Shown here: one piece after another, positions 2,575 through 63,957 of the stretch
Layout: each line of letters opens with the position of its first letter
How positions within the stretch are numbered: position 1 is the first letter of the stretch
Assembly (NCBI RefSeq): GCF_035084215.1
Contig: NC_090340.1
Coordinates: 2,666,001-2,730,000 of the forward strand
Reading direction: 5' to 3'
From: Heptranchias perlo
Taxonomy: Eukaryota
DNA length: 64,000 nt
Translations under genes and position numbers: made by a program
Notes under the pieces: model-generated
Databases searched by the model: none
Seen by the model: the letters and a program-made list of their open reading frames with translations, nothing else
What the model was told of the DNA's origin: nothing

Positions 2575-3785
2575 TCATTCAAAACTAATCCCACTGCTCT
2601 GCTGTCTCCCAATAGCCCTGTATCGATTCAAAACTAATTTAACTGCCCCACCCTCTCCATAGCCCTGTTCAATCCCAAATTAATTCCACTACCCCCTCTC
2701 TCCCCATAGTCCTCCATCAATTCAAAACTTATTCCACTACCCTGCTTTCCCCCCATAGGCCCGTATCAATCCAAAACTAATCCTATTGCCTCGCTCAATC
2801 CCCATAGCCCTCTAACAATTCAAAACCAATCCCACTGCCACGCGCTCTCCCATTGCTCCGTATAAATCCCAAACAAATCCCATTGCCTCATTGTCTTCCC
2901 ATAGCCCTGTATAAATCAAAAACTAATCCCACTGCTCTGCTCTCCCCGTAGCCCAATATCAATCCCAAACTAATCCCTCTTCCCCACGCTCACCCGATCG
3001 CCCTGCTTCAACCCAAATTAGTTTTGGATTGATACAGGGCTACGGGAAGTGAGTGGGGCAATGGTATTAGTTTTTGATTGATACAGGGCTATTTGAAGAG
3101 TGCGGGTTAATGGGATTTGTTTGGGATTGAGAGCGGGGCAGTGGCATTAGTTTGGGATTGGTACAGGGATATGGGGAGAGCGCAGGTCAGTGGGATTCGT
3201 TTTCGATTGATGCAGGGCTATAGAGTAAGAGCGGAGCAGTGATATTAGTTTGGGATTCATACAGGGCTATGAGTAGGATTAATCATCCAGCCCCACACTC
3301 TCCCCATAGCCCTGTATCAATCCAATACCCTGTCCTGCTCTATCCTATAGCCCTGTATATATAGCCCTGCCCTGCTCTTTTCCCATAGTCCTGTCTCAAT
3401 CCAGAAATAATGTCACTGCTGCACTCTCTCCCCATAGTCCTGTACCAATCTCAAACTAATTCCACTGCCGCACTCTCCCCTTAGCCCTGTATCAATTCAA
3501 AATTAATTCCACTGCCGCACTCTCCCCATAGCTCTGAATTACTCCCAAACCTATACCACTGCCCCGCTCTACCCATAGCCCTGTATCAATCCCAAACTAA
3601 TATCACTTCCCCGCTCTCTCCCTATAGCCCTGTATAAATCAAAAACTAACCCTACTGCCCCACTTTCTCCCCATAGCCCTGTACCAATCGCAAACTAATT
3701 TGACTGCTCCGCTCTCCCCATAGCACTGAAACTATCGAAAACTAATGCCACTGCCCAGCTCGTTCCCCAGAGCCCTGTATCAATA
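2575..3785. repeat. Degenerate ~45-bp tandem repeat resembling the CR1 3' end, with an internal inverted block (~3020-3280)
   Basis: Unit aaactaatcccactgccccgctctccccatagccctgtatcaat; its reverse complement resembles CR1 3' ends at ~10168 and ~13777. Confidence 0.8.
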
Positions 3786-10289: not shown

Positions 10290-12040
10290 TTGAATGGTAG
10301 TGTTTTTTAGGACAGTGTAGATGGAGATTTACTCTGTTTCTACATTGTGCTGTACCTGTCATAGAAGTGTTTGATTGGACAGTGTAGAGGGTGTTTACTC
10401 TGTATCTAACCTGTGCAGTACTTGACCTGGGAGTCTTTGATGGGACAGTGTGGAGGGTGCTTACTCCATATCTAATCTGTGTGGTACTTGACCTGGTAGT
10501 GATTGATGGGACAGTGTGGAGGGAGCTTCACTCTGTATCTAAACTTCCAGTATCTTGCCTGGGAGTGTTTGATGGAACAATGTAGATGGAGCTTTACTCT
10601 GTATCGAACCTGAGCTGTACCTCTCCTGGGAGTGTTTGATGGGACACTGTAGATGGGGCTTTAGGCTGTATAAAACCTGTGCAGTACCTTCCCTAGGAGT
10701 GTTTGATGGGACAGTGTAGATGGAGCTTTACTCTGTATTGAACGTGTGCTGTAGTTGACCTGGGAGTGTTTGATGGGACAGTGTAGAAGGAGCTTTGCAC
10801 TGTATCGAACCTGTGCTGTACCTTTCCTGGGAGAGTTTGATGGAACACTGTAGATCAGGCTATAGGCTGTATCAAACCTGTGCAGTACTTTCCCTGGGAG
10901 TGATTGATGGGACAGTGTAGAGGGAGCCTTACTCTGTATCTAACCCGCACAGTATGTGCCCTGGGAATGTTTGATTGGACACCATAGATGAAGCTTTACT
11001 CTGTATCCAACCCGTGCTATATCTGCCCTGGGAGTGTTTGATGGGACAGTGTAGTGGGACTTTATACTGTATCAAACTCATGGTGTACCTGCCCTGGGAG
11101 TGTTTGATGGGACAGTGTAGTGGGACTTCACACTGTATCAAACCTGTGCTGTACCTGTCTGGGAGTGCTTGATGGGACAACATTGATGGGGCTTTACTCT
11201 GTATCTAACCTGTGCTGTACCTTCCCTGCATGTGTTAGATGGGACAGTGCAGATGAAGCTTTACTCTGTACCATTACTGCGTTGTACCACTCCTGGGAGT
11301 GTTGATGGGACAGTGTAAAGGGTGATTTACATAGCATCTAACGTGTGCTGTACATGTCCTGCAAGTACTTAATCTGACAGTATGGAAGGAGTTGCCTTTG
11401 TATATAAACTAGTGCTGTACTTGACCTGGGAGTCTTTAATGGGACTTTGTAGAGGGAGCTTTATACTGTATTTAACCCTGTATCGAACCCTCACTGTACC
11501 TGCCCTGGGAGTGTTTGATGGGACAGTGTAGAGGGAGTTTTACTCTGTACCTACATTTTCCGGTACCTTCTCTGGAAGTGTTTGATGTGACAGTCAGATG
11601 GGGCTTTACTCTATATCTACACTGTGCTGGACTTGACCTGGGAGTGTTTGATGGGCCTTTGTAGAGGTAGCTTTATACTATATCTAACCCTCTGTATCTG
11701 CCCTGGAAGTGTTTGATTGGACATTGTTGAGGGAGCTTTACTCTGTATTTAACCCGAGCTGTACCTGCCGTGGGAGTGTTTGATGGGACAGTGTAGAGGG
11801 AGCTTTACTCTGTATCTAACCCGTGCTGTACCTGCCCTGGGAATGTTTGATGGGACACTGTAGATGGTGCCTTACTCTGCATCTAATGTTTCCGGTATGT
11901 TCCCTGGGAATGCTGGATGGGATAGGGTAGAGGCAGCTTTACTCTGTATCTAACCCACACTGTACGTACACTGGGAATGTTTGATGGGACACTGTAGATG
12001 GTGCTTTACTCTGTATCTAATGTGTCCCTAATGTGTACTT
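10290..12040. repeat. 67-bp tandem repeat array (~26 copies)
   Basis: Same unit as 3900-4622. Confidence 0.92.
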
Positions 12041-13894: not shown

Positions 13895-16800
13895 TAAGAG
13901 ATAGGAGCAGGAGCAGGCCATACGGCCGCTCGAGCGTGCTCCACCAATCAATATGACAATTTCAAAGATTCACAACCCTCTGAGTGAAGAAATTTTTCCT
14001 CATCTCAGTCCTAAATGGCCCACCCCTTATCCTGAGTCTATGCCCCCTATTTCTAGACTCTCCAGCCAGGGAAACACCCCCTCAGCATCTACAGTGTCAA
14101 ACCCTCAGAATCTTATGTTTCAATGAGATCACTTTCATTCTTCTAAACTCCAGAGAGTATTGGCCTATTCTACTCAATCTCCCCTGATAGGAGAACCCTC
14201 CAATCCCAGGAATCAATGTCGTGAACCTTTGTTGCACCGCCTCTAAGGCAAGCATATCCTTCCTTAGGAAAAGAGACCAAAACTATACACAATACTCCAG
14301 GTATGGTCTCACCAAAGCCCTGTACAATTGCAGCAAAACTTCCTTACTTTTGTACTCCAACCCTCTTGCAATAAAGGCCAACATACCATTTGCCTTCCTA
14401 ATTGCTTGCTGCACCGGCATGTTAACTTTCTGTGCTTCGTGTACAAGGTCATCCAAATCTCACTGAACACCAACATTTAACAGTTTCTCACCATTGAAAA
14501 ATATTCTGTTTAGATAATTCTTCCTACTATTTCCCCACATTATACTCCATCTGCCGTCTTCTTGCCCACTCACTTAACCCTTTGCAGACTCTTTGTGTCC
14601 TCCTCACAACTCACTTTCCCACCTAGCTTTGTATCATCAGCAAACTTGGATACATTACACTCGGTCCCTTCATCTAAGTCATTAACATAGATTGTAAATA
14701 GTTGAGGCCCAAGCACTGTTCTCTGCAGCATCCCACTAACCTGCCAACCTGTGAATGACTCGTTTATCCCTACCATCTGTTTTCTATCCATTAACCAATC
14801 CTCTGTCCACGCTAATATATTACCCCGACCCCTATGAGCCCTTAGCTTGTGTAAAAAGCTTTTGTGCAGCACCTTATCAAATGCCTTTTGAAAATCCAAA
14901 TATACTACATCCACTGGTTCCCCTTTTTCTACCCTGCTAGTTAGTCTCAAAAAACTCTTAACAGATTTGCAAACATGATTTTCCTTTCATAAAACCATGT
15001 TGACTCTGCCAAATCATATTATGATTGTCTAAGTGCCCTGTTACCACGTCCTTAATAATAGATTTCAGCATTTTCCTGACGACTGATGTCAGGCTAACAG
15101 GCTTGTTGTTCTCTGTTTTCTCTCTCCCTCCTTTCTTGAATAGCGGGGTTACATTTGCTACCTTCCAATCCACTGGGACCATTCTAGAATCTAGGGAACT
15201 TTGGAAGACCACAACCAATGCATCTATGCAGCCACCTCTTTTAGGACCTTAGGATGTAGGCCATCAGGTCCAGGGGATTTGTTGCCTTTTAATCCCATTA
15301 ATTTCTCCAGTACATTTTCTTTACTAATATTAATTACTTTAAGTTCCTCATTCTCATTTGTCTTTTGGTTCCCCACTATTTCTGGTATGTTTTTTGTGTC
15401 CTCTACTGTGAAGACAGATACAAAATGTTTGTTTAACTTCTCTGCCATTTCCTTATTCCCCATTATAATTTCTCCTGTCTCAGCCTCTAAGGGACCCACT
15501 TTCACTACTCTCTCTTCCTTTTTACATACTCATAGAAGCTCTTACAATCTGTTTTTATAGTTCTTGCCAGTTTACTCTCATATTCCATTTTCTCCCTCTT
15601 TATCAATTTCTTGGCCATACTTTTCTGGTTTCCAAAACTCTCCCAATTCTCAGGCGTACTACTCTTCTTCACAACATTATAAGCCTCTTTCAATCTAATA
15701 TTATCCTTAACTTCTTCAGTTAGCCACGGATGGCTCACTTGCCCCGTGGAGTTTTTATTCCTCAATGGAATGTATATTCATTGAAACTTATGAAATATTA
15801 CTTTAAATGTTTGCCATTGCTTATCTACTATCATGTCTTTTAATCTAATTTCCCAATGAACTTTAGCCAACTCGCCCCTCATAACTATTTAATTGGCTTT
15901 GTTTAAGTTTAAGACCCTAGTTTCGGACTTAAGTAGTCACTCTCAAACTCAATGTGAAATTCTATCATATTATGATCTCTCTGCCCCAGAGGATCCCTTG
16001 CTATGAGATTACTAATTTACCCTGTCTCATTACACAAGACAAGATCTAAAATAGCCTGTATTGGTTTCACGACGTATTGTTTGAGGAAACAGTCTCAAAT
16101 GCATTCCATGAACTCATCCTCCAAACTACTTTTGCCAATTTGATTTGTCCAGTCTATATGAAGATTGAAGTCCCTCACGATTATGCATTGCCCTTGTTAC
16201 AAGCTCCTCTTATTTCTTGATTAATATTCTGTCCAACAGTATAACCACTGTTTACAGTGCCTATTAGCTACTCCCACCAGTGCTTTCTGCCCCTTGTTAT
16301 TTCTTATCTCCACCCATACTGATTCTGCTTCCCAATCTTCTATGCCACGATCCTTTCTCACTATTGTCTTTATGTCATCCTTTATTATCAGGGCTACACC
16401 CCACCCCATCGCCTCCTCTTCCATTTTGTCTGACTTTTCTAAAAGTCAAGTACCCTGGAATATTTAATTCCAACCTTGGTCACCCAGCAACCATGTCTCA
16501 GTATTGACGACTAGATCAAACCCCTTTATCTCTATTTGTGCCATTAATTCATCTATCTTGTTACGAATGCTCCGTGTATTCAGATAAAGTGCCTTTAATT
16601 TTAACATTTTACTATTTTTCCCTGATTTGACCTTATTCACTGATGCGCTATTACCGCCAAACTCTCTGTCCCTTCCTGAGACACTCTGCTTATCTTTACC
16701 CAAATCGTTACACTGCCCTATGGCCTTGACTTTTCTCTTTAGATTTAAAATGTTACCCTTATCTGAATTTCCCCCCACTCCTTCCCCCATTTTAGTTTAA

Positions 16801-18070
16801 AGCCCTATATTCTGCCCTAGTTATTCGATTTATCTGGTCCCAGCCCAGTTTAAGTGGAGCCCTTCCCAACGGAACAGCTCCCTCTTTTCCCAGTACTGGT
16901 GCCCATGCCCCATGTATCAAAACCCCTGTCTCACACACCACTCTTCGAACCATGTATTTAACTCACTGCTCTGTTTGACCCTATGCCAATTTGCGTGTGG
17001 CTCAGGTAGCAATCCAGAGATTATTACCTTTGAGGTTTTACTTATTAATTTGGACCCTAGCTCTTCAAACTCCCTCAGCATAACCTCATTCTGAGTTCTA
17101 CCTATGTCGTTGGTTCCTACATGGACCACGATAACTGGATCCTCCCCTTCATGCTCCAAGTTCTTCTCCAGCTGCGAGGAGGTGTCCTTAACCCTGGCAC
17201 CGGGCAGGCAACCCAGCCTGTGGGACTCCCGGTCATGGCTGCAGAGAACGGTATCTATCCCCCTGACAATACCTTCCCCTACCACTATCACTTTCCTTTT
17301 TACTCCTACCACTTAAATGGCCTCCTGTACCACGTTGCCATGGTAAAGTTGCCCATCCTCTCTGCAGACTTTGTTCTCATCCACACAGGTAGCAAGTACC
17401 TTGTACCAGTTGGACAAGGTCAAATGCTGAGGCTCCTCCATCACTGGATCTTGGGACCCCATACCTGCCTGACTCGCAGTCACATCCTCCTGTCCCTGAC
17501 CACTGAACGAATCTAAGCCACTACCTAACCTAAGGGGCGTAACTGCCTCCTGGATCAAAGTGTCCAGGTAACTCTCGCCCTCCCTGATGTATCGCAATAC
17601 CTGCAGCTCTGACTCCAGATCAACAACTCGGAGCCGAAGTTCCTCGAGTTGCAGACACTTACTGCAGATGTGGTTACTCGGGATCTCACTGGTCTCCATC
17701 AACTCCCACATACTGCAGTTACTACATACCATCGACCCTGACATCCCTATCTAATCCTGCTTCATATATTTAATTAATCAAAGTTTTTATGGAATTAATT
17801 GACTTGGTTTATTTCTGTTTTTTTTAAACTAATTGATTTATCTACTTGTAACAAGTTGCCCGCTCATTTTGACTGTTCATTTTTAAGGCTTTTTAACTAA
17901 TACTAACAGATTAACCACTAAAAGCACAAACCACCATCAAAGACAATAACCACTAAACACAATAATCCTTAAAAACACTCAGGAACAAACTAAATACTTC
18001 CAGCGACTGAACCTCCGCGCTCCTCTGTGATGTCACTTTGTATCTTTTTCTTGAGTTTTTTGGTTCCACC
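13895..18070 (-). mobile_element. Near full-length decayed CR1 LINE (ORF1 zinc finger/esterase ~17744-16792; ORF2 EN/RT fragments)
   Basis: CSNCSMW...CSKC zinc finger, VVHVGTND esterase motif, LYLNTRS, TETWL, KSPGPDG, KFADDTK; many stops and indels. Confidence 0.92.
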
Positions 18071-18072
18071 GC

Positions 18073-21000
18073 CCGGGTCCACTCTCCCCGCTCCTGTTAT
18101 TAATCCCCGGGTCCACTCTCCCCGCTCCTTTTATTAATCCCCGGGTCCACTCTCCCCGCTCCTGTTATTAATCCCTGAGTCCACTCTCCCCGCTCCTTTT
18201 ATTAATCCCCGGGTCCACTCTCCCCGCTCCTGTTATTAATCCCCTAGTCCACTCTCCCCGCTCCTGTTATTAATCCCTGAGTCCACTCTCCCCGCTCCTT
18301 TTATTAATCCCCGGGTCCACTCTCCCCGCTCCTTTTATTAATCCCCGGGTCCACTCTCCCCGCTCCTTTTATTAATCCCCGGGTCCACTCCCCGCTCCTT
18401 TTATTAATCCCCTGGTCCACTCTCCCCGCTCCTTTTATTAATCCCCGGGTCCACTCTCCCCGCTCCTTTTATTAATCCCCGGGTCCACTCTCCCCGCTCC
18501 TTTTATTAATCCCCTGGTCCACTCTCCCCGCTCCTTTTATTAATCCCCTGGTCCACTCTCCCCGCTCCTTTTATTAATCCCCGGGTCCACTCTCCCCGCT
18601 CCTTTTATTAATCCCCGGGTCCACTCTCCCCGCTCCTTTTATTAATCCCCGGGTCCACTCTCCCCGCTCCTGTTATTAATCCCCTGGTCCACTCTCCCCG
18701 CTCCTTTTATTAATCCCCGGGTCCACTCTCCCCGCTCCTTTTATTAATCCCCGGGTCCACTCTCCCCGCTCCTTTTATTGATCCCCGGGTCCACTCTCCC
18801 CGCTCCTGTTATTAATCCCCGGGTCCACTCTCCCCGCTCCTTTTATTAATCCCCTAGTCCACTCTCCCCGCTCCTGTTATTAATCCCCGGGTCCACTCTC
18901 CCCGCTCCTTTTATTAATCCCCTGGTCCACTCTCCCCGCTCCTTTTATTGATCCCCGGGTCCACTCTCCCCGCTCCTTTTATTGATCCCCGGGTCCACTC
19001 TCCCCGCTCCTTTTATTAATCCCCTGGTCCACTCTCCCCGCTCCTGTTATTAATCCCCTGGTCCACTCTCCCCGCTCCTTTTATTAATCCCCGGGTCCAC
19101 TCTCCCCGCTCCTTTTATTAATCCCCTGGTCCACTCTCCCCGCTCCTTTTATTAATCCCCGGGTCCACTCTCCCCGCTCCTTTTATTAATCCCCTAGTCC
19201 ACTCTCCCCGCTCCTGTTATTAATCCCCGGGTCCACTCTCCCCGCTCCTTTTATTAATCCCCTGGTCCACTCTCCCCGCTCCTTTTATTGATCCCCGGGT
19301 CCACTCTCCCCGCTCCTTTTATTGATCCCCGGGTCCACTCTCCCCGCTCCTTTTATTAATCCCCTGGTCCACTCTCCCCGCTCCTGTTATTAATCCCCTG
19401 GTCCACTCTCCCCGCTCCTTTTATTAATCCCCGGGTCCACTCTCCCCGCTCCTTTTATTAATCCCCTGGTCCACTCTCCCCGCTCCTTTTATTAATCCCC
19501 GGGTCCACTCTCCCCGCTCCTTTTATTAATCCCCGGGTCCACTCTCCCCGCTCCTGTTATTAATCCCTGAGTCCACTCTCCCCGCTCCTTTTATTAATCC
19601 CTGAGTCCACTCTCCCCGCTCCTTTTATTAATCCCCGGGTCCACTCTCCCCGCTCCTTTTATTAATCCCCTAGTCCACTCTCCCCGCTCCTTTTATTAAT
19701 CCCCGGGTCCACTCTCTCCGCTCCTTTTATTAATCCCCGGGTCCACTCTCCCCGCTGCTTTTATTAATCCCCTAGTCCACTCTCCCCGCTCCTTTTATTA
19801 ATCCCCGGGTCCACTCTCTCCGCTCCTTTTATTGATCCCCGGGTCCACTCTCCCCGCTCCTTTTATTAATCCCCGGGTCCACTCTCCCCGCTCCTTTTAT
19901 TAATCCCTGAGTCCACTCTCCCCGCTCCTTTTATTAATCCCTGAGTCCACTCTCCCCGCTCCTTTTATTAATCCCCGGGTCCACTCTCCCCGCTCCTTTT
20001 ATTAATCCCCTAGTCCACTCTCCCCGCTCCTTTTATTAATCCCCGGGTCCACTCTCTCCGCTCCTTTTATTAATCCCCGGGTCCACTCTCCCCGCTGCTT
20101 TTATTAATCCCCTAGTCCACTCTCCCCGCTCCTTTTATTAATCCCCGGGTCCACTCTCTCCGCTCCTTTTATTAATCCCCTGGTCCACTCTCTCCGCTCC
20201 TTTTATTGATCCCCGGGTCCACTCTCCCCGCTCCTTTTATTAATCCCCGGGTCCACTCTCCCCGCTCCTTTTATTGATCCCCGGGTCCACTCTCCCCGCT
20301 CCTGTTATTAATCCCCGGGTCCACTCTCCCCGCTCCTTTTATTAATCCCCTAGTCCACTCTCCCCGCTCCTGTTATTAATCCCCGGGTCCACTCTCCCCG
20401 CTCCTTTTATTAATCCCCTGGTCCACTCTCCCCGCTCCTTTTATTGATCCCCGGGTCCACTCTCCCCGCTCCTTTTATTGATCCCCGGGTCCACTCTCCC
20501 CGCTGCTTTTATTAATCCCCTGGTCCACTCTCCCCGCTCCTTTTATTGATCCCCGGGTCCACTCTCCCCGCTGCTTTTATTAATCCCCTGGTCCACTCTC
20601 CCCGCTCCTTTTATTAATCCCCGGGTCCACTCTCCCCGCTCCTTTTATTAATCCCCGGGTCCACTCTCCCCGCTCCTTTTATTAATCCCCTGGTCCACTC
20701 TCCCCGCTCCTTTTATTAATCCCCGGGTCCACTCTCCCCGCTCCTTTTATTAATCCCCGGGTCCACTCTCCCCGCTCCTGTTATTAATCCCTGAGTCCAC
20801 TCTCCCCGCTCCTTTTATTAATCCCTGAGTCCACTCTCCCCGCTCCTTTTATTAATCCCCGGGTCCACTCTCCCCGCTCCTTTTATTAATCCCCGGGTCC
20901 ACTCTCCCCGCTCCTTTTATTAATCCCCGGGTCCACTCTCCCCGCTCCTTTTATTAATCCCCGGGTCCACTCTCCCCGCTCCTTTTATTAATCCCTGAGT

Positions 21001-22025
21001 CCACTCTCCCCGCTCCTTTTATTAATCCCCGGGTCCACTCTCCCCGCTCCTTTTATTAATCCCCGGGTCCACTCTCCCCGCTCCTTTTATTGATCCCCGG
21101 GTCCACTCTCCCCGCTCCTTTTATTGATCCCCGGGTCCACTCTCCCCGCTCCTTTTATTAATCCCCGGGTCCACTCTCCCCGCTCCTTTTATTGATCCCC
21201 GGGTCCACTCTCCCCGCTCCTTTTATTGATCCCTGAGTCCACTCTCCCCGCTCCTTTTATTAATCCCCTGGTCCACTCTCCCCGCTCCTTTTATTAATCC
21301 ATGAGTCCACTCTCCCCGCTCCTTTTATTGATCCCCGGGTCCACTCCCCGCTCCTTTTATTGATCCCCGGGTCCACTCTCCCCACTCTTTTTATTAATCC
21401 CTGAGTCCACTCTCCCCCTTCCTTTTTTTGATCCCCGGGTCCACTCTCCCCGCTCCTTTTATTAATCCCCTGGTCCACTCTCCCCACTCTTTTTATTAAT
21501 CCCTGAGTCCACTCTCCCCCTTCCTTTTATTGATCCCTGAGTCCACTCTCCCCGCTCCTTTTATTAATCCCCTGGTCCACTCTCCCCACTCTTTTTATTA
21601 ATCCCTGAGTCCACTCTCCCCGCTCTTTTTATTAATCCCTGAGTCCACTCTCCCCGCTCCTTTTATTAATCCCCTGGTCCACTCTCCCCACTCTTTTTAT
21701 TAATCCCCGGGTCCACTCTCCCCGCTCCTTTTATTAATCCCCTGGTCCACTCTCCCCACTCTTTTTATTAATCCCTGAGTCCACTCTCCCCCTTCCTTTT
21801 ATTGATCCCCGGGTCCACTCTCCCCGCTCCTTTTATTAATCCCCTGGTCCACTCTCCCCACTCTTTTTATTAATCCCTGAGTCCACTCTCCCCCCTCCTT
21901 TTATTGATCCCCGGGTCCACGCTCCCCGCTCATTTTATTGATCCCCGGGTCCGCTCTCCACACTCCTTTTACTGATCTGCTGGGTCCACTCTCCCCGCTC
22001 CTTTTATTGATATCTGGGGTCCGCT
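18073..22025. repeat. 34-bp tandem array (gggtccactctccccgctccttttattaatcccc)n, ~115 copies
   Basis: Exact 34-bp period, few variant positions, no spacers. Confidence 0.97.
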
Positions 22026-26522: not shown

Positions 26523-26800
26523 AAATGCAAAATTATAGATGTATATGAACGCCACCGTTTACCGACGTGTGCAATTTTATCATGACAATTTTACATAAGA
26601 CGTATCAACTCCAAATATGGACTAAGGAAATTGTAATGGAAATAAATTGACATAGAATTGTGATAAAAACGTGGGAACAGGGAGTAAGATTGACATAAGA
26701 TATTTAATATATCCTAGCTAGATTAATACCTACTGCAAGTGAATGCCCATTGAAACAATGCATTTTTCAAAAGTAACATTGTTACATGGAATTACACAGA

Positions 26801-29800
26801 AGCCAACTTCCTGGCACCACGGGTAGCTCTGCTGCACAGGCTGGGAGGAAAAAGAGTGGCAGAGCTATAGTGATAGGGGACTCAATTGTAAGGGGAATAG
26901 ACAGGCGTTTCTGCGGCCGCAACCGAGACTCCAGGATGGTGTGTTGCCTCCCTGGTGCAAAGATCAAGGATGTCTCGGAGCGGCTACAGAACATTTTGGA
27001 GGGGGAGGGCGAACAGCCAGCTGTCGTGGTGCACATAGGCACCAACGATATAGGTAAAAAAGGGGATGAGGTCCTAAAAGCAGAATATAGGGAGTTAGGA
27101 GGTAAATTAAAAAATAGGACCTCAAAGGTAGTAATCTCAGGATTGCTGCCAGTGCTACGTGCTAGTCAGAGTAGAAATAGGAGGATATTTCAAATGAATA
27201 CGTGGCTAGAGGAATGGTGCAAGGGGGAGGGATTCAAATTCCTGGGACACTGGAAACGGTTCTGGGGGAGGTGGGACCAGTACAAACCGGATGGTCTGCA
27301 CCTGGGCAGGGCCGGGACCGCTGTCCTAGGAGGAGTGTTTGCTAGTGCTGTTGGGGAGGGTTTAAACTAAAGTGGCAGGGGGTTGGGAACCTGAGCAGGG
27401 AGAGAGAGGAAAGCGTAACAGGAAGGGACAGAAGGTATGGAGTAATATGTAAAGTGTTAAAAAAGGAAAAAGCAGGAACTAAGCGTCACAAAACAGATTT
27501 GAAAGTTCTTTATCTGAATGCACGTAGCATTCGTAATAAAATGGACGAGTTAACGGCACAAATAACTACGTATGGGTATGATCTTGTGGCCATTACAGAA
27601 ACATGGCTGCAGGGTGACAACGACTGGGAATTAAATATGCCAGGGTATTTAACAATCAGGAAGGACAGGCAGGAAGGAAGGGGAGGTGGGGTGGCTATGT
27701 TAATAAAGGAAGGAATCACTGTAATACAGAGAAATGATATTGGGACAAAGCATCAAGATAATGAAACAGTTTGGGTGGAGATAAGGAATAATAAGGGAAA
27801 AAAAACATTAGTGGGCGTAGTATATAGGCCTCCTAATAGTTGCAACTCTGCTGGAAGAAGTATTAATCAGGAAATAGTCGGGGCATGTAATAAGGGAACA
27901 GCCATAATTATGGGGGATTTTAATTATCATATTAACTGGACAAATCAAATTGGGCACAGCAGCCTTGAGGACGAGTTCATTGAGTGCATCAGGGATGGAT
28001 TTCTTGAGCAGTATGTAACTGATCCTACAAGGGGGCAGGCAACCTTGGACCTGGTCCTGTGTAATGAGTCAGGATTAATTAATAATGTCCTAGTTAAGGA
28101 TCCCCTTGGAACGAGCGACCACAACATGGTTGAATTCCATATCCAATTAGAGGGTGATAAGGTTGATTCTCAAACAAGCGTACTGAGCTTGAATAAAGGA
28201 GACTATGATGGTATGAGAGCGGAATTGATTAAAGTGGACTGGGAAAATAGATTAAAGGGTAAGACGGTACATGAGCAGCGGTGTTCATTTAGGGAGTTAT
28301 TTTACAACTTTCAAAATAAATATATTCCACTGAGGAAAAAAGGGTGTAAAAGAAATGACAGCCATCCGTGGCTAAGTAAAGAAATCAAGGATAGTATCCG
28401 ACTAAAAACAAGGACATATAAGGTAGCCAAACTTAGTGGGAGGATAGAAGATTGGGAATTCTTCAAAAGACAGCAAAAAGTAACTAAAGGATTGATTAAG
28501 AAAGGGAAGTTAGATTATGAAAAGAAATTAGCAAAAAATATAAAAACAGATAGCAAGAGTTTCTATAGTTATATAAAAAGAAAAAGGGTGGCTAAGGCAA
28601 ACATAGGTCCCTTAGAGGATGAGACCGGGAAATTAATGGTGGGAAACATGGAGATGGCAAAAATGCTGAACAAATATTTTGTTTCAGTCTTTACAGTAGA
28701 GGACACTAAGAATATCCCAACACTGGACAAACAGGGGACTCTCGGGGGGGGGGAGGAGCTAAATACGATTAAAATCACTCAGGAGATGGTACTCAGTAAA
28801 ATAATGGGACTCAAGGCGGATAAATCCCCTGGACCTGATGGCTTCCATCCTAGGGTCTTGAGGGAAGTGGCAGTAGGGATTGTGGATGCTTTGGTGATAG
28901 TTTTCCAAAATTTCCTGGACTCAGGAGAGGTCCTGGCAGATTGGAAAACTGCTAATGTAACACCGTTATTTAAAAAGGGTAGTAGGCAGAAGGCTGGAAA
29001 TTATAGGCCAGTTAGCTTAACATCTGTGGTGGGTAAAATTTTGGAGTCTATTATTAAGGAGACAGTAACGGAACATTTAGATAAGCATAATTTAATAGGA
29101 CAAAGTCAGCATGGCTTTATGAAGGGGAAGTCATGTCTGACAAATTTGCTTGAGTTCTTTGAGGATATAACGTATAGGGTGGATAAAGGGGAACCAGTGG
29201 ACGTAGTGTATTTAGACTTCCAGAAGGCATTCGACAAGGTGCCACATAAAAGATTATTACTTAAGATAAAAAATCACGGGATTGGGGGTAATATTCTGGC
29301 ATGGGTGGAGGATTGGTTATCGAACAGGAAGCAGAGAGTTGGGATAAATGGTTCATTTTCGGACTGGCAACCAGTAACCAGTGGTGTTCCACAGGGGTCG
29401 GTGCTGGGTCCCCAACTCTTTACAATCTATATTAACGATTTGGAGGAGGGGACCGAGTGCAACATATCAAAATTTGCAGATGATACAAAGATGGGAGGGA
29501 AAGTAGAGAGTGAGGAGGACATAAAAAACCTGCAAGGGGATATAGACAGGCTGGGTGAGTGGGCGGAGATTTGGCAGATGCAATATAATATTGGAAAATG
29601 TGAGGTTATGCACTTTGGCAGGAAAAATCAGAGAGCAAGTTATTTTCTTAATGGCGAGAGACTGGAAAGTACTGCAGTACAAAGGGATCTGGGGGTCCTA
29701 GTGCAAGAAAATCAAAAAGTTGGTATGCAGGTGCAGCAGGTGATCAAGAAAGCCAACGGAATGTTGGCTTTTATTGCTAGGGGATAGAATATAAAAACAA

Positions 29801-30517
29801 GGAGGTATTGCTGCAGTTATATAAGGTATTGGTGAGACCGCACCTGGAATACTGCATACAGTTTTGGTCTCCATACTTAAGAAAAGACATACTTGCTCTC
29901 GAGGCAGTACAAAGAAGGTTCACTCGGTTAATCCCGGGGATGAGGGGGCGGACATATGAGGAGAGGTTGAGTAGATTGGGACTCTACTCATTGGAGTTCA
30001 GAAGAATGAGAGGCGACCTTATTGAAACATATAAGATTGTGAAGGGTCTTGATCGGGTGGATGCAGTAAGGATGTTCCCAAAGATGGGTGAAACTAGAAC
30101 TAGGGGGCATAATCTTAGAATAAGGGGCTGCTCTTTCAAAACTGAGATGAGGAGAAACTTCTTCACTCAGAGGGTGGTAGGTCTGTGGAATTTGCTGCCC
30201 CAGGAAGCTGTGGAAGCTACATCATTAGATAAATTTAAAACAGAAATAGACAGTTTCCTAGAAGTAAAGGGAATTAGGGGTTATGGGGAGCGGGCAGGAA
30301 ATTGGACATGAAGCTGAGTTCGGATCGGTCAATGCCCTATGGGTGGCGGAGAGGGCCCAGGGGCTGTGTGGCCGGGTCCTGCTCCGACTTCTTGTGTTCT
30401 TTAGATTTGTGGTTGGGATCAGATCAGCCATGATCTTATTGAATGGCGGAGCAGGCTCGAGGGGCCAATTGGCCTACTCCTGCTCCAATTTCTTATGTTC
30501 TTATGTTCTTATGTTCT
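26801..30517 (+). mobile_element. Young CR1 LINE, 5'-truncated within ORF1; ORF2 has a 1-nt frameshift near 29781
   Basis: ORF1 esterase part ends 27370; ORF2 pieces 27454-29787 and 29808-30311; (ttcttatg)3 tail; near-identical to 40313-44407. Confidence 0.97.
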
Positions 30518-40511: not shown

Positions 40512-43454
40512 TCATGTCCAATTTCCTGCCCGCTCCCCATAACCCCTAATTCCCTTTACTTCTAGGAAACTGTCTATTTCTGTTTTAAATGTATCTAATG
40601 ATGTAGCTTCCACAGCTTCCTGGGGCAGCAAATTCCACAGACCGACCACCCTCTGAGTGAAGAAGTTTCTCCTCATCTCAGTTTTGAAAGAGCAGCCCCT
40701 TATTCTAAGATTATGCCCCCTAGTTCTAGTTTCACCCATCTTTGGGAACATCCTTACTGCATCCACCCGATCAAGACCCTTCACAATCTTATATGTTTCA
40801 ATAAGATCGCCTCTCATTCTTCTGAACTCCAATGAGTAGAGTCCCAATCTACTCAACCTCTCCTCATATGTCCGCCCCCTCATCCCCGGGATTAACCGAG
40901 TGAACCTTCTTTGTACTGCCTCGAGAGCAAGTATGTCTTTTCTTAAGTATGGAGACCAAAACTGTATGCAGTATTCCAGGTGCGGTCTCACCAATACCTT
41001 ATATAACTGCAGCAATACCTCCTTGTTTTTATATTCTATCCCCCTAGCAATAAAAGCCAACATTCCGTTGGCTTTCTTGATCACCTGCTGCACCTGCATA
41101 CCAACTTTTTGATTTTCTTGCACTAGGACCCCCAGATCCCTTTGTACTGCAGTACTTTCCAGTCTCTCGCCATTAAGAAAATAACTTGCTCTCTGATTTT
41201 TCCTGCCAAAGTGCATAACCTCACATTTTCCAATATTATATTGCATCTGCCAAATCTCCGCCCACTCACCCAGCCTGTCTATATCCCCTTGCAGGTTTTT
41301 TATGTCCTCCTCACTCTCTACTTTCCCTCCCATCTTTGTATCATCTGCAAATTTTGATATGTTGCACTCGGTCCCCTCCTCCAAATCGTTAATATAGATT
41401 GTAAAGAGTTGGGGACCCAGCACCGACCCCTGTGGAACACCACTGGTTACTGGTTGCCAGTCCGAAAATGAACCATTTATCCCAACTCTCTGCTTCCTGT
41501 TTGATAACCAATCCTCCACCCATGCCAGAATATTACACCCAATCCCGTGATTTTTTATCTTAAGTAATAATCTTTTATGTGGCACCTTGTCGAATGCCTT
41601 CTGGAAGTCTAAATACACTATGTCCACTGGTTCCCCTTTATCCACCCTATACGTTATATCCTCGAAGAACTCAAGCAAATTTGTCAGACATGACTTCCCC
41701 TTCATAAAGCCATGCTGACTTTGTCCTATTAAATTATGCTTATCTAAATGTTCCGTTACTGTCTCCTTAATAATAGACTCCAAAATTTTACCCACCACAG
41801 ATGTTAAGCTAACTGGCCTATAATTTCCAGCCTTCTGCCTACTACCCTTTTTTAATAACGGTGTTACATTAGCAGTTTTCCAATCTGCCGGGACCTCTCC
41901 TGAGTCCAGGGAATTTTGGAAAACTATCACCAAAGCATCCACAATCCCTACTGCCACTTCCCTCAAGACCCTAGGATGGAAGCCATCAGGTCCAGGGGAT
42001 TTATCCGCCTTGAGTCCCATTATTTTACTGAGTACCATCTCCTGAGTGATTTTAATCGTATTTAGCTCCTCCCCCCCGAGAGTCCCCTGTTTGTCCAGTG
42101 TTGGGATATTCTTAGTGTCCTCTACTGTAAAGACTGAAACAAAATATTTGTTCAGCATTTTTGCCATCTCCATGTTTCCCACCATTAATTTCCCGGTCTC
42201 ATCCTCTAAGGGACCTATGTTTGCCTTAGCCACCCTTTTTCTTTTTATATAACTATAGAAACTCTTGCTATCTGTTTTTATATTTTTTGCTAATTTCTTT
42301 TCATAATCTAACTTCCCTTTCTTAATCAATCCTTTAGTTACTTTTTGCTGTCTTTTGAAGAATTCCCAATCTTCTATCCTCCCACTAAGTTTGGCTACCT
42401 TATATGTCCTTGTTTTTAGTCGGATACTATCCTTGATTTCTTTACTTAGCCACGGGTGGCTGTCATTTCTTTTACACCCTTTTTTCCTCAGTGGAATATA
42501 TTTATTTTGAAAGTTGTAAAATAACTCCCTAAATGAACACCACTGCTCATGTACCGTCTTACCCTTTAATCTATTTTCCCAGTCCACTTTAATCAATTCC
42601 GCTCTCATACCATCATAGTCTCCTTTATTCAAGCTCAGTACGCTTGTTTGAGAATCAACCTTCTCACCCTCTAATTGGATATGGAATTCAACCATGTTGT
42701 GGTCGCTCGTTCCAAGGGGATCCTTAACTAGGACATTATTAATTAATCCTGACTCATTAAACAGGACCAGGTCCAAGGTTGCCTGCCCCCTTGTAGGATC
42801 AGTTACATACTGCTCAAGAAATCCATCCCTGATGCACTCAATGAACTCGTCCTCAAGGCTGCACTGCCCAATTTGATTTGTCCAGTTAATATGATAATTA
42901 AAATCCCCCATAATTATGGCTGTTCCCTTATTACATGCCCCGACTATCTCCTGATTAATACTTCTTCCAGCAGAGTTGTAACTATTAGGAGGCCTATATA
43001 CTACGCCCACTAATGTTTTTTTCCCCTTATTATTCCTTATCTCCACCCAAACTGTTTCATTATCTTGATGCTTTGTCCCAATATCATTTATCTGTATTAC
43101 AGTGATTCCTTCCTTTATTAACATAGCCACCCCACCTCCCCTTCCTTCCTGCCTGTCCTTCCTGATTGTTAAATACCCTGGCATATTTAATTCCCAGTCG
43201 TTGTCACCCTGCAGCCATGTTTCTGTAATGGCCACAAGATCATACCCATACGTAGTTATTTGTGCCGTTAACTCGTCCATTTTATTACGAATGCTACGTG
43301 CATTCAGATAAAGAACTTTCAAATCTGTTTTGTGACGCTTAGTTCCTGCTTTTTCCTTTTTTAACACTTTACCTATTACTCCATACCTTCTGTCCCTTCC
43401 TGTTACGCTTTCCTCTCTCTCCCTGCTCAGGTTCCCAACCCCCTGCCACTTTAG
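40512..43454 (-). CDS. CR1 ORF2: APE endonuclease plus reverse transcriptase (frame open from the ORF1 overlap)
   Basis: LYLNARS, ITETWL, MGDFN, SDHN, PQGSVLGP, FADD; the 951-aa track starts at GTG and the frame is open 31 codons further upstream. Confidence 0.95.
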   Translation of the reverse strand, partial: LKWQGVGNLSREREESVTGRDRRYGVIGKVLKKEKAGTKRHKTDLKVLYLNARSIRNKMDELTAQITTYGYDLVAITETWLQGDNDWELNMPGYLTIRKDRQEGRGGGVAMLIKEGITVIQINDIGTKHQDNETVWVEIRNNKGKKTLVGVVYRPPNSYNSAGRSINQEIVGACNKGTAIIMGDFNYHINWTNQIGQCSLEDEFIECIRDGFLEQYVTDPTRGQATLDLVLFNESGLINNVLVKDPLGTSDHNMVEFHIQLEGEKVDSQTSVLSLNKGDYDGMRAELIKVDWENRLKGKTVHEQWCSFRELFYNFQNKYIPLRKKGCKRNDSHPWLSKEIKDSIRLKTRTYKVAKLSGRIEDWEFFKRQQKVTKGLIKKGKLDYEKKLAKNIKTDSKSFYSYIKRKRVAKANIGPLEDETGKLMVGNMEMAKMLNKYFVSVFTVEDTKNIPTLDKQGTLGGEELNTIKITQEMVLSKIMGLKADKSPGPDGFHPRVLREVAVGIVDALVIVFQNSLDSGEVPADWKTANVTPLLKKGSRQKAGNYRPVSLTSVVGKILESIIKETVTEHLDKHNLIGQSQHGFMKGKSCLTNLLEFFEDITYRVDKGEPVDIVYLDFQKAFDKVPHKRLLLKIKNHGIGCNILAWVEDWLSNRKQRVGINGSFSDWQPVTSGVPQGSVLGPQLFTIYINDLEEGTECNISKFADDTKMGGKVESEEDIKNLQGDIDRLGEWAEIWQMQYNIGKCEVMHFGRKNQRASYFLNGERLESTAVQRDLGVLVQENQKVGMQVQQVIKKANGMLAFIARGIEYKNKEVLLQLYKVLVRPHLEYCIQFWSPYLRKDILALEAVQRRFTRLIPGMRGRTYEERLSRLGLYSLEFRRMRGDLIETYKIVKGLDRVDAVRMFPKMGETRTRGHNLRIRGCSFKTEMRRNFFTQRVVGLWNLLPQEAVEATSLDTFKTEIDSFLEVKGIRGYGERAGNWT

Positions 43455-44401
43455 TTTAAACCCTCCCCAACAGCACTAGCAAACACTCCTCCTAGGACAG
43501 CGGTCCCGGCCCTGCCCAGGTGCAGACCGTCCGGTTTGTACTGGTCCCACCTCCCCCAGAACCGTTTCCAGTGTCCCAGGAATTTGAATCCCTCCCCCTT
43601 GCACCATTCCTCTAGCCACGTATTCATTTGAAATATCCTCCTATTTCTACTCTGACTAGCACGTGGCACTGGCAGCAATCCTGAGATTACTACCTTTGAG
43701 GTCCTATTTTTTAATTTACCTCCTAACTCCCTATATTCTGCTTTTAGGACCTCATCCCCTTTTTTACCTATATCGTTGGTGCCTATGTGCACCACGACAG
43801 CTGGCTGTTCGCCCTCCCCCTCCAAAATGTTCTGTAGCCGCTCCGAGACATCCTTGATCCTTGCACCAGGGAGGCAACACACCATCCTGGAGTCTCGGTT
43901 GCGGCCGCAGAAACGCCTGTCTATTCCCCTTACAATTGAGTCCCCTATCACTATAGCTCTGCCACTCTTTTTCCTCCCAGCCTGTGCAGCAGAGCTACCC
44001 GTGGTGCCAGGAAGTTGGCTGCTGCTGCCTTCCCCTGATAAGTCATCCCCCCCAACAGCATCCAAAGTGGCATATCTGTTTGAGAGGGGGATGGACACAG
44101 GGGACCCCTGCACTACCTGCCTGCATCTCTTACTCTTCCTGGTGGTCACCCATTCACTTCCTGCCTGTATACCCTTTACCTGCGGTGTGACCAACTCGCT
44201 AAACGTGCTATCCACGAGTTTCTCTGCATCGCGGATGCTCCACAGTGAGTCCACCCGCAGCTCCAGCTCCGAGATACGATCGGTCAGTAGCTGCAGGTGG
44301 ACACACTTCCCGCACACATGGTCGGCAGGGACACTGGTAGTGTCCATGACTTCCCACATCTTGCAGGAGGAGCATATCACGGGTGCGAGGTCTGCTGCCA
44401 T
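43451..44401 (-). CDS. CR1 ORF1: zinc finger/leucine zipper plus SGNH esterase-like domain (316 aa from ATG 44401)
   Basis: CSSC..CGKC, GDS, HIGTND, DGLH motifs. Confidence 0.93.
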   Translation of the reverse strand: MAADLAPVICSSCKMWEVMDTTSVPADHVCGKCVHLQLLTDRISELELRVDSLWSIRDAEKLVDSTFSELVTPQVKGIQAGSEWVTTRKSKRCRQVVQGSPVSIPLSNRYATLDAVGGDDLSGEGSSSQLPGTTGSSAAQAGRKKSGRAIVIGDSIVRGIDRRFCGRNRDSRMVCCLPGARIKDVSERLQNILEGEGEQPAVVVHIGTNDIGKKGDEVLKAEYRELGGKLKNRTSKVVISGLLPVPRASQSRNRRIFQMNTWLEEWCKGEGFKFLGHWKRFWGRWDQYKPDGLHLGRAGTAVLGGVFASAVGEGLN

Positions 44402-44411
44402 GTTCACGTCA

Positions 44412-53749: not shown

Positions 53750-54820
53750 ATGGGCAGTCTGCGAGGGCTCCCATTGGGCATTGAGCATGACTGAGAGCAT
53801 GCAGAGAGGCCACGCACAGTGGGTCAAGCTGCGAGGAGATGGAGGACGAGGAAGCCCAGCATACTGAGCAGGAGGCCCTACTCAATGAGTGCCTTCCGGG
53901 ATCAATTTTCTTACCTCAACATGACCGAGGGGGATTGCATCCGACACCTAAGGTTCACCAAGGATGCCGTCACCGAGATCTGTCAACTGGTGTGGCCACA
54001 ACTGCAGCCTCAGAGCAGGGCGAGGACAGCATTGCCTGTGGCTGTGAAGGTCATCGTGGCGCTTAATTTCTACAGCTCAGGATCATTTCAGGCTTCAGTT
54101 GGCGACGTGTGCAACATCTCGCAGTATGCAGTACACTGCTGCATAAGGGAGGTCACAGACGCACTGTGCCACATGAAGAACAGGTTCATCACCTTCCCTC
54201 TCAACAGAGACAATCAGAATGAGCGAGTGCGGGGGTTCACCCACATTGCTGGCTTCCCCATGGTGCAGGGTGCCATTGACTGCACACACATTGCCCTGCG
54301 TGCCCCGCACATCAACTCAGCTGTCTTCGTCAACCAAAAGGGTTTCCACTCCCTCAACGTGCAGCTGCTGCCCGAGCACACGCATTGAATCATGGAGGTC
54401 AATGCCCGCTACCCTGGGAGCAGTCACGATGCCTTCGTCATGCGGCAGTCCAACGTGCCAGCTATCTTTCACCTGACTCGGCAAGTCAAAGGCTGGCTAA
54501 TGGGCGACAAGGGCTATCCCGTCATGACTTGGCTCACGACACCGGTCAGGAACCCACGCACACGTGCGCAGCAGGCCTATAATGAGAGCCATGCTGGCAC
54601 ACGCAACATTGTGGAGCAGACCATAGACCTCCTCAAACAACGCTTCCGCTGCCGAGACCAGTCTGGAGGAGCCCTGCAGTACTCCCCTGAGAGGGTGGGC
54701 AGATTCGTGGTGGTCTGCTGCATGCTGTACAACCTCGCCATCATGAGGGACCAGCCTTTACCACCAATAATTGCAGAAGATCCTGAGCCAGAGGTGGAAG
54801 AGGAGGGGGAGAAGTGGTGA
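53750..54820 (+). pseudogene. Harbinger DDE transposase (HARBI1-like) with in-frame TGA at 53792 and 54386
   Basis: GAIDCTH, KGFHSLNVQ, PGSSHD, GDKGYP, RNIVEQT..LLKQRFRC in one frame. Confidence 0.92.
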
Positions 54821-55138
54821 TGGAGAGGAGGGGTTGGATCTGGAAGAGGAAGTGGAGGAAGACGCAAGGGTGCAACAGGAACCACATGCCTTGTCTGCAA
54901 GGGCTGTGCGTGCTCGCCTGATCCGTGCCCACTATCAATAATTTCAACTACATCCCCCAAGCCACCAACAGTCCTGCATTCCCCATCTTTCCCCTCCCAC
55001 AAGACAATCAAATCGTCCTCCATCTGATTACACATTGGTGTCCCTCTCAGCTCATTGCATAATTAAAAACAATCACCAAATGCAAAATCAAACTCTCATT
55101 TATGGATGAATAAATGAAATTATGCAAACATGATTGAA

Positions 55139-57038
55139 CTATTCGCCCATGTGCATGACCTTAATGTCTGTTGTCCTTGTGCCTTTACCTATCCTAGTGC
55201 TTCTACGAGGTACTTCCCCAGTGGCTGAAGCATGGGTGGTGGAAGGCTGCTGGCCTTCAATGGAGAAACGTGCAGATGGCCTTGGAGGACGACCTCGACC
55301 AGCTCTGGGCCTGGACGGCCCGGCTTCAGACTGCACCATCTCAATATGGGCTGCAGCAGTCTGGCCTGGCTGGCTGGGAGGCAACAACAGGGGCACTGGC
55401 AGAGTGGCAGGGGTGGGAACAAGAATGCTGTCGGCCTGAGAGAGGACAGCACATCTGGCTGCCATGGCGCCACTGCCACTCTCCCAGGGTGGCGCCTCAG
55501 CAATCGGCTGGAGAACGGATTGCTGGAGTGCTGTGACACCCTGGAAGCCCCGTTCCACAGTGGTCACCAGAACCATGATCGCAGCAGTCTGAGCTTCCAA
55601 GGCAGCAGTCTGAGCTGCAAATGCAGCAGTTAGACCATGGATGGCAGATGTTTGTGCTGCAATGGAAGCTGTGACATCAGTTATCAGACGCTGCATCATG
55701 GTGGGTTCCACAGGTGCGCTGATGAAGGTGAGCACCCGTTCCATTTTGGAAAGGATGGGCTCCAAGCTCTGCACAAAGCCCTGCGCCAAGTTGGAGCTGG
55801 ACTCCTCCATGTCCCTTCTCATTGTGCGCAGGTTTTCTGGCAGGCTTTCCAGTGCCCCAAGCATTTGTTGGTGTGCACCCATCAGCCGTCTTCTGTAGCC
55901 TGGCCCATCGAAATCCTCATCTGACTCCTCTGTTGCAGAACTAGTGAACGACCTCGCCCTCCGGTGAGCTGGGACCTGTGGTATCCATTCCCTCCACCCG
56001 GCTCCTGATCACTTGTGCTCGGTGTCTCATCACGTGCAGATCCCTCCTGTAACCTAATCTCTAAAGGACACGCAGTGTCAGTCTCTGAGCTGATGGAAGC
56101 AAGTGTCAGATCGAGTGCTGATGTGGCTTCAGTGTCCCCCTCCTCCTCCCCCACCTCCTCCCCCTCCTCCTCCGAGGGTGCTGTCACGTGTTCTTGGGTA
56201 TCTGCAAATTCAAAGGGAAACAGGTTGAGTTGTGGAGTGGGGAGAGGAGCAAGTCAGAGGTGTGTGCTGAGAGCATGTGCAGCACGTGAGTCAGAAAAGA
56301 TTATGGGAGGAGGGAGATGTGCAAAAGGAGAAGGAGCATTAGATATGCAGAGATCCCTTCATTGGGACCTTCAGCGCAGCACGTTGGCTGCAGCGACGGT
56401 CTGCCCAATGATCCGCAACACCATCTCCTCTAGGGGGTTGAGGACGTGCAGACGTGCCCGTCCAGCCTAAGGTCTCTCCTGCTGCCAGGTGTTATATATC
56501 ACCTTCTCCTGCAATACAGAGGAGAGTGTCAGTGAGTGTCCTGCAAGGTGTGTGGGTGATGTGCCTGTTGTGTGGTCGAATAGCTGCCAGTTTGTGTGGC
56601 TTGTGAGTGGTGGTTGTGTGGCCTGCAAGTGTGCTACTATGTGCAGGTGAGATGCAGCATTTGGTATGGATGGGCAGTGTTTGTTGGTGGGTGGGTGACA
56701 GGAGGTGTCGTGCATGGAGCATTGGTGCAGTTGGTAGGATGTGCCACTTAACACTTGTATTCACTCACCTTGACCAACTCATTAAACGTCTTCCGGCACT
56801 GCACTCACGTGCATGGTGCAATGCTCCTAGCATTCACCTCCTGCACCACAGCCTGCCAATGCCTACACAGCTGTAGTGTGAAGGGTCTCCAGCCACCCTG
56901 CGGGTACATGCATGCCCTCCTTTGGTCCACGCCTTCCACCAGGGCCTCGAGAGCATCGTCAGAGGATCATGGAGCCCTCTATCTTGCCAGTGCAGCTACT
57001 CACAATGCCCTTCACCTAGTTGGCTGTGTATCTGCCAT
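55139..57038 (-). pseudogene. Harbinger Myb/SANT-like partner gene (spliced, several stops)
   Basis: Exon 57038-56769 reads RAP*SSDDALEALV...W..V..EVN..CT*VQCRKTFNEL followed by gtgagt; further ttgcag acceptors near 56509 and 56202; low-complexity C-terminus. Confidence 0.8.
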
Positions 57039-61929: not shown

Positions 61930-62727
61930 CTAAAATATTAATGTAAAGTATATAAATATGAAGGATATGTCCAAAATTATCACCCAATCATAACCATTAG
62001 CATGGATTCTTATTTGAAAATTATTCTCATAAACGCTGAAAGAACAGAGATATTTTAATCAATCTTTGCTCTTTTATCTTCTTCTTCGCGAAAGTATAGA
62101 TTCTTTTCTCTCAGATCTAATTTTTATCCTGGCTTCTTCTTGATGATATGATTGTGACTGAAAGTGAATTTTGTACAGTAACTAATAGATGTTGCTAAAA
62201 TTACAGTTTGCAGCAGATTGTGAGCACGGTTTGTGGAATGCAGGAGACGGCGGTTGTGCTCCAAACAGTAAGGCACGAGTTACTGCCCGTTACTGCTCCA
62301 AGGGCCACTTCCACACCTGAGCCGTGACTCCAGGAGGTACGGTGCAATGGGGCAGGAGACCCCGAACAGCAATCGCAGAGTTCTTGGAACCTGATTAAAA
62401 GTGAATAATTGTAGCCAGTAGTCTTACACTTTGACGGATTTAAAACCCGGTGAAAGAACCGGAGTAGAACAACTGATGAGAAAGTACAATTTGCCCAACC
62501 CGAAGAGAGTCGTAGCAAAGGGTTCTATCGCGCGATAACTGAGATCTGCTATCTTATCTTTAGGGTAGGTGATGATGTAAATGACCGAGGCTTTGGAGCA
62601 GAACACCTGGCATAAATCCACGGTTAATGGTATTTGAGTTAAACACATGGTGGGGTCAGGGCCAGGGTGGGGGAGCGATCACAGTAATCGGTTCTATTTG
62701 CAGGATAACTGAGATCTGCTATCTTAC

Positions 62728-63033
62728 CTATGGGATAGGTGACAATGTGAGTGGCCGTGGCTGGAATTTGGAATGTAACGTGAGACACCAGGCAGGTATA
62801 AACAGTCCCGGTTGGAACAGGCGTATCATCCAAACGGCTGGAAGCTTCATATAGTCCATCGGTGATGAGTTGTATAACGTTACTTATCTCTGTTGTAGTT
62901 TTGGTGCCATCTTTATACCAAGTGAAGGTGATATTCTCCGGGTAAAACGGAGATGTCGCGCACACAACTGTAAGAGACGCAGATGAATCCTTTTCATGTT
63001 CTTGAGAGGTAATTTTCAGCGGAGTTGGCGGAA
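62728..63033 (-). CDS. Ig receptor copy 3, C1-set exon
   Basis: [26 protein letters not shown]; ttctag acceptor, gtaaga donor. Confidence 0.93.
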
Positions 63034-63957
63034 CTAGAAAAGTTGAGGAAAGCAACGTTACTCGGGCATCAGTCAAGGTCATCAACAGTCGCTTTGTTTC
63101 GTCCTAATCCGGACAGCACGATGAGGGGAGCTATTCACTCTGCGCTATCGGTAGCGACATCGTAAACGGCATTTTCGTAAACGTGCACTTTATTTCGGAG
63201 TAATTTTAACTTTTATCCCCGGGCGATAAACGGGTGACGGCTGATGGGAAAGAAAATCACCAGGGTGTAAATCGGACGGCCGATTCACTATCGCCTGTTT
63301 TGCGGTACCGCTGCCGATCAATTCCACCCCTTTAAGTATAGCAACTGATGATAAAGTACAATTTTCCCAAACGCGAGGGACTTTGACACAAAGTTTCTGG
63401 ATAATATCTTATTTACTGGAGACTAAAAAGATGATGAAAATATGGGGTACGTGGCTCAAGTTACTGAGTGTGGACTTTAACTGTTAGTCACACCCGGCTT
63501 TCAACGCTCTTAACATATAGACCATTAAATTACAAATGGGTGAATCTGAATTCCAATTGAAACAGTCAGCCCTCCGAACCAGTGCACACAAAATCAACCA
63601 TCAAACAGGATCACATTTTGCTTACGGTGGCAGAAAGCGTTCGTATCCAATACAATAAAACAAACACAAGTCTTTAACGGATATTGTAATTTTAACTTCA
63701 CATACTTTTTGCATACACGCTGACTGTGTATTTTTGGGGTAAAATTACTAAAAGACAATGCTCTTGTTGATTAATATTGCTGAAATATTGTAATACCCAT
63801 TAGCATGTAACGTGTATCAGCCTACAATGCAATTTGAATTTATTCGTATAAAACGATTGGAATTTAAGTTATAATGTGAATCCTTCAAAGCACACCCGAG
63901 AAATGATTCGAATATTACAGTCACAGAGATCGCATTCGTCGCTATTTTCATACTTAC

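Follow-up and report, generated by a model that had tools for sequence, protein, structure and literature searches.

A candidate programmed -1 ribosomal frameshift at the ORF1-ORF2 junction of CR1 retrotransposons in Heptranchias perlo

The window, a stretch of 64,000 nucleotides from Heptranchias perlo contig NC_090340.1 (positions 2,666,001 to 2,730,000), carries CR1 copies referred to here as A, B and C. Copy A lies on the plus strand and is 5'-truncated. It retains the 3' part of ORF1 (26797-27370), an ORF2 with APE endonuclease and reverse transcriptase (RT) regions (27367-30311) that is broken near 29779-29787, and a 3' tail of 3.5 repeats of the octamer TTCTTATG (30490-30517). Copy B, on the minus strand, has a complete ORF1 of 316 aa without 5' UTR (43451-44401) and an open ORF2 in the -1 frame (40512-43454). 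Pfam searches assigned ORF1 to the SGNH/GDSL esterases (PF13472, matched on copy B, to which copy A is near-identical) and ORF2 to endonuclease plus RT. The element has a short tandem 3' tail, is frequently 5'-truncated and carries no LTRs; by its domains and octamer tail, with a tree built on ORF1 alone, it is a CR1-type LINE and not a provirus. The SGNH-esterase ORF1, the APE and RT ORF2 and the octamer tail are shared with canonical CR1 as described in the covered parts of a preprint (bioRxiv 10.64898/2026.01.13.699120). Named ORF1 homologues are nearest in sharks and rays, with further ones in turtles and squamates.

Copies A and B agree at 3685 of 3713 aligned bases (99%), so they do not constitute independent evidence and were counted once. 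Copy B had been described as intact; both of its ORFs are indeed open, but the 5' UTR of the family is absent. It departs from all 15 longer copies found (29 examined) one nucleotide above the ORF1 ATG, the truncation point being window position 44402 (minus strand), and both ORFs were left open without an element UTR. Copy C (about 17732-13959, minus strand) belongs to an older, decayed CR1 family and has a 7-nt deletion in ORF1 upstream of the junction.

The end of ORF1 in copy A reads GAG GGT TTA AAC TAA (27356-27370; G-E-G-L-N-stop) and contains, as first noted, two phased heptamers of the X XXY YYZ type: T TTA AAC (27361-27367), directly followed by the stop TAA (27368-27370), and G GGT TTA (27358-27364). 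In-phase heptamers occur at just 3 of 314 ORF1 codon positions, and the final two positions are two of them. The -1 frame (FKLKWQG...) is open downstream into ORF2 and closed on its upstream side by a TAG at 27343-27345, five codons 5' of the heptamer. An ATG-free linker, open in the -1 frame only, connects the end of ORF1 with the endonuclease (27367-27507), whose first motif, LYLNARS, lies at 27508-27528. The first in-frame ATG of ORF2 (27541-27543) comes after this motif, too late for a whole endonuclease. A G-tract, GG-CA-GGGGG-TT-GGG (27374-27387), is a candidate stimulator, its G5 run starting 10 nt past the heptamer. The two heptamers, the -1 frame with its upstream TAG and the late ATG had been claimed for copy A, and the same site was found as claimed in copy B (43463-43451, minus strand), where the junction is identical and the frames give a predicted fusion of 1296 aa, in line with the proposed length of about 1,296 aa. 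Copy C, said to keep the site with its downstream frame disturbed, does retain GCT TTA AAC TAA (16801-16792, minus strand; TTTAAAC TAA at 16792-16801), and its endonuclease frame is shifted by indels in the G-run. Only 2 of 10 copies of its family show the -1 frame; since G-run length varies among these copies, the family is uninformative on frame.

For a genome-wide assessment, loci were gathered using DNA and divergent protein queries, and each junction was located through its protein anchors, independently of the heptamer. Candidate places numbered 828 for the young family and 5,932 for the old family. For the phase count, 204 loci were reduced to 142 distinct copies, most of them from two young families, by setting aside 39 loci without the DGLH anchor and 23 duplicates. 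The sequence TTTAAACTAR stood at the exact offset from the DGLH motif in 123 of the 142; in 12 others it was shifted by upstream indels, and 7 were without it (6 by one base). Frame was scored where both anchors were present (130 of 230 loci) and tabulated by the spacing between DGLH and the endonuclease. The -1 frame was found at 212 nt in 38/45 copies, at 227 nt in 35/36, at 242 nt in 4/5, at 275 nt in 2/2, at 284 nt in 10/17, at 335 nt in 1/1, at 353 nt in 3/3 and at 452-470 nt in 4/7. Two singletons, L185 and the fused L208, depart from the -1 arrangement. The tandem GGGTTTA did not hold as a general feature, being present in just 4 of 12 lineages, so the conserved unit is TTTAAAC plus the stop, which was TAA or TAG directly at the heptamer in 12/12 lineages.

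Codon usage over the last 140 ORF1 codons was compared across ten lineages (ORF1s 27-98% alike), whose representatives were picked as motif carriers, so that the fairness of this comparison rests on the 142-copy count. Invariant residues occupied 23 columns, 21 of which vary in codon; the only fixed codons were Leu TTA and Asn AAC. The codon ahead of TTA AAC always has T as its final base, though Gly and Ala alternate there. By these codon patterns and the protein endings given below, the heptamer is conserved beyond amino-acid need.

Conservation of heptamer and phase across CR1 had been proposed as a check. It is seen in diverged families of this genome and in a metagenome contig, L121, which carries an amniote-type CR1 (about 30% ORF1 identity) reading GCT TTA AAC TAG, with a DGLH-to-endonuclease spacing of 188 nt and the endonuclease in the open -1 frame; we take this CR1 to be bird-like. 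At the protein level the arrangement is kept from sharks to crabs. Three collections supplied 65 pattern loci, of which only 7, mostly decayed, reach the ORF1 end: the L121 junction is clean, L091, L095, L115 and L130 retain TTTAAAC, and the motif is altered in L099 and L093. Four more junctions, three with TTTAAAC and one with TTTAAAA, came from blind sampling of 40 x 10 kb. Contigs from two DNA-sized sequencing runs of other organisms piled up sharply on 27337-27390 and diverged on both sides.

Among protein homologues with the DGLH motif, 75 of 88 end in L-N; those with a named source belong to sharks, rays, coelacanth, a mormyrid, frogs, turtles and squamates. We further considered 150 representatives of 50% clusters, of which 106 had an anchored normal tail; the profile behind this set was built mostly from LN-ending proteins and thus favours LN matches. 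The C-terminal tripeptide could be encoded as X XXY YYZ in 64/106 representatives, versus 2-13/106 at offsets 1-11 and 3.6% internally, and was incompatible in the remaining 42. A residue whose codons cannot end in T precedes LN in 2/102 cases versus 111/510 at nearby positions (p=8e-8). Gln precedes GN in 20/22 and LN in 0/104. The Q-G-N ending is typical of an ORF1 group whose named members are crabs and predicts CAG GGA AAC, i.e. a G GGA AAC heptamer. Both G GGA AAC and A AAA AAC are known from protein only and stand as predictions; DNA of the GN and KN lineages was not found in viral contigs or genome G000, nor did any longer fused relatives score, which is weak evidence. Read-through variants P0040, P0079 and P0138 carry F-K-L, as TTT AAA CTA demands. 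In a quick, unfinished ORF1 tree, proteins ending in GN, KN, GF, NL and LN were interleaved within one clade, and a separate group of 11, possibly L2-type by our assumption, had no compatible ending. Six proteins (P0176, P0185, P0205, P0217, P0238, P0241) carry K-N at the usual position followed by 2-12 more residues; their clade may have an A AAA AAC site at which the two frames overlap further. One CR1 ORF1 with 63% identity (P0006) bears the NCBI name of a Pseudomonas aeruginosa SGNH hydrolase, a bacterial label that is probably due to host contamination.

The linker was compared in ten lineages, nine from this genome and L121. It spans 37-125 codons with no stops in the -1 frame in 10/10 lineages, and 4-8 and 2-11 stops in the other two frames. 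Since it has repeatedly been remodelled in length yet stays stop-free in the -1 frame, its translation most likely begins at the junction. In 6/10 lineages (including L047) there is no Met ahead of endonuclease strand 1, and in family B Met is absent for 143 codons; the other 4/10 have an in-frame ATG upstream of the endonuclease, which in one case overlaps the stop as TAATG. In a profile search against the PDB, the Asn of LYLNARS (27517-27519) aligned to Asn14 of the L1 endonuclease, which places the first ATG of ORF2 eight codons past it; a single-sequence PDB search gave no match. Asn14 of L1 coordinates the active-site water, like Asn68 of APE1, in the portion of the source covered (PMC8565326). 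Residues 2-9 form a strand in the endonuclease model, whose fold matches the L1 and TRAS1 endonucleases, and by this model an ORF2 protein begun at 27541 would be without that strand. Loci L160-L170 have linkers of 92-125 codons, the longest of which repeats a WQG-G-N-L-S block, as if the junction had been duplicated or two families had recombined.

Downstream of the heptamer, a G-run begins after 8-10 nt in 12/12 lineages, in agreement with the earlier remark on G-tracts, and the residues that it encodes differ between lineages. It falls within the top 2% of local windows by G4Hunter in 11/12 lineages, and ViennaRNA selects a G-quadruplex at the site in 8/12, mostly two-tier. Canonical -1 sites have a pseudoknot or stable stem-loop 5-9 nt downstream, but no conserved stem-loop or shared fold was found 3' of this one (MFE z -1.7 to +1.1, not significant, pseudoknots not being folded explicitly), the best long-range duplex of the G-tract was no better than shuffles, and Rfam returned two weak matches only, far below threshold. 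Of the hairpin or G-quadruplex proposed as a stimulator, a conserved hairpin was not found, so that the G-run is the only candidate left. The ribosome could pause at the adjacent stop codon and/or at the G-run, for which a G-quadruplex is just one option. Natural G-quadruplex stimulators were anticipated but not yet known in the parts covered of Atkins 2016 (PMC5009743).

Taken from the sequence patterns described, programmed -1 frameshifting at the CR1 junction is the probable source of an ORF1-ORF2 fusion, and we hold this with good confidence. Most ribosomes would terminate at TAA and release ORF1p; the smaller share that shifts by -1 on U UUA AAC would produce a fusion of ORF1, linker, endonuclease and RT of about 1,300 aa with the junction ...VGEGLN-LKWQG. 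The heptamers U_UUA_AAC, G_GGA_AAC, A_AAA_AAC and G_GGU_UUU are listed among the shiftiest in the covered part of a review (PMC5009743). The same part describes retroviral gag-pol and coronavirus 1a/1b (U_UUA_AAC in IBV), which share with CR1 the in-phase X XXY YYZ, the downstream ORF in -1 and the production of a structural protein and a polymerase at a set ratio. Unlike these systems, the CR1 site was found without a pseudoknot or stable stem-loop, its stop follows directly after the heptamer with the G-run 8-10 nt downstream, and no protease that would cut the fusion was found in the element. Also comparable are TRE5-A and TRE3-A of Dictyostelium, which differ from CR1 in being amoebozoan and of another clade, presumably L1-like. 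These are APE-type non-LTR elements whose ORF2 is said to need a -1 frameshift in the part of the source covered (PMC5911963). The CR1 junction would most likely be an instance of an established mechanism for which no report on this element family was found.

A broader scenario is put forward tentatively, and we consider it rather doubtful as a whole. It holds that a -1 cassette of heptamer, stop and G-run is an ancient feature common to esterase-ORF1 CR1s of crabs, sharks and amniotes, that the heptamer was swapped several times among U UUA AAC, G GGA AAC, A AAA AAC and G GGU UUU, that a natural G-quadruplex or G-tract stimulates slippage in vertebrates, and that ORF2p is mainly made as a gag-pol-like fusion.

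How ORF2 of LINEs is translated is an open question, to which reinitiation is the usual answer. Applied to CR1, this would mean that ribosomes terminating at TAA begin again right on the stop or close to it, using an AUG or some other codon of the -1 frame, and release ORF2p as a separate protein. Such coupling is described in the covered part of a review for L1 and SART1, characterised bicistronic LINEs in which ORF2 depends on ORF1 translation through unconventional initiation, AUG-independent in L1 and at UAAUG in SART1 (PMC2881922). An AUG overlapping the ORF1 stop in the SART1 manner would give the -1 frame as well, and the open linker is also compatible with it, but it was found in one CR1 subfamily only: L086, L211 and L227, three of five copies, read TTTAAAC TAATG, uniting a slippery site and a stop-start in one junction, and the sister copy L205 has TAAAG instead. 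TAAAG also stands at the copy A stop, TAATG occurs in just 1/12 lineages, and the stop is overlapped by a variable triplet (AAG, ACT, AAT, GAG, GGT, ATG) that is mostly no start codon. SART1 and L1 yield separate proteins, whereas the conserved signal of CR1 lies upstream of the stop. Reinitiation explains the frame, not the upstream synonymous constraint: the fixed TTA AAC, the preceding T and the reciprocity of Q-G-N and x-L-N have no account under it. It is less favoured than frameshifting, and we regard it as improbable.

Considerably less probable still is an internal start of ORF2 at a near-cognate or downstream linker codon, reached through leaky scanning, through splicing or from a shorter transcript, with L-N kept for esterase structure. 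In its favour, a purine stands at -3 of CTG 27391 and some lineages have linker ATGs; against it, families B, C, D, F, I and L121 lack this CTG. Selection on the protein cannot account for fixed synonymous codons, and the heptamer grammar persists while the C-terminal dipeptide varies (LN, GN, KN, GF, NL). Among the joints listed for contigs of 8 runs, none of the GT..AG type crossed the site, a result that does not speak decisively against splicing. The idea that motif and G-run act elsewhere (RNP assembly, reverse transcription, transcriptional slippage) and that active elements are rare in-frame fusions is the least credible, as the dominant, recently amplified form carries the -1 junction (35/36 and 38/45 copies) and the family A junction lacks a long homopolymer, even though natural in-frame fusions do occur in family B via a longer G-run. 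These in-frame copies (L231, L232, L236, L083, L208, L234) look like G-run indels; L231 (G000:C12:60972000-60977200) is open for 1290 aa and L232 (G000:C12:56496600-56501800) for 1271 aa.

In the literature searched, which left the key primary papers of 1997-2006 outside its coverage, no report of a CR1 frameshift was found. The covered parts of bioRxiv 10.64898/2026.01.13.699120 are silent on how CR1 ORF2 is translated and do not use the word 'frameshift', which by term search only is likewise absent from the portions covered of CR1 preprints and a LINE-composition preprint. CR1 accounts for over 410,000 fragments and 11.8% of chicken chromosomes according to a review. If programmed frameshifting holds, CR1 ORF2 annotations that start at the first ATG miss an active-site residue, junctions described as 'frameshifted' are the working form, and the RT can be accompanied by the esterase and coiled coil. 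The cassette, of 100 nt, is short enough for a direct reporter test and may hold a stimulator other than a pseudoknot.

Elsewhere in the window, a weak DDE_Tnp_4 match (53795-54385, E 0.006) and a facing ORF (55139-56008) form what we take to be a Harbinger-like transposon remnant (53795-56008). A host-gene exon encoding an immunoglobulin C1-set domain lies at 62639-63103 on the minus strand, and long minisatellites occupy 54-2494 (32 bp), 10295-12020 (67 bp) and 18072-22008 (34 bp).
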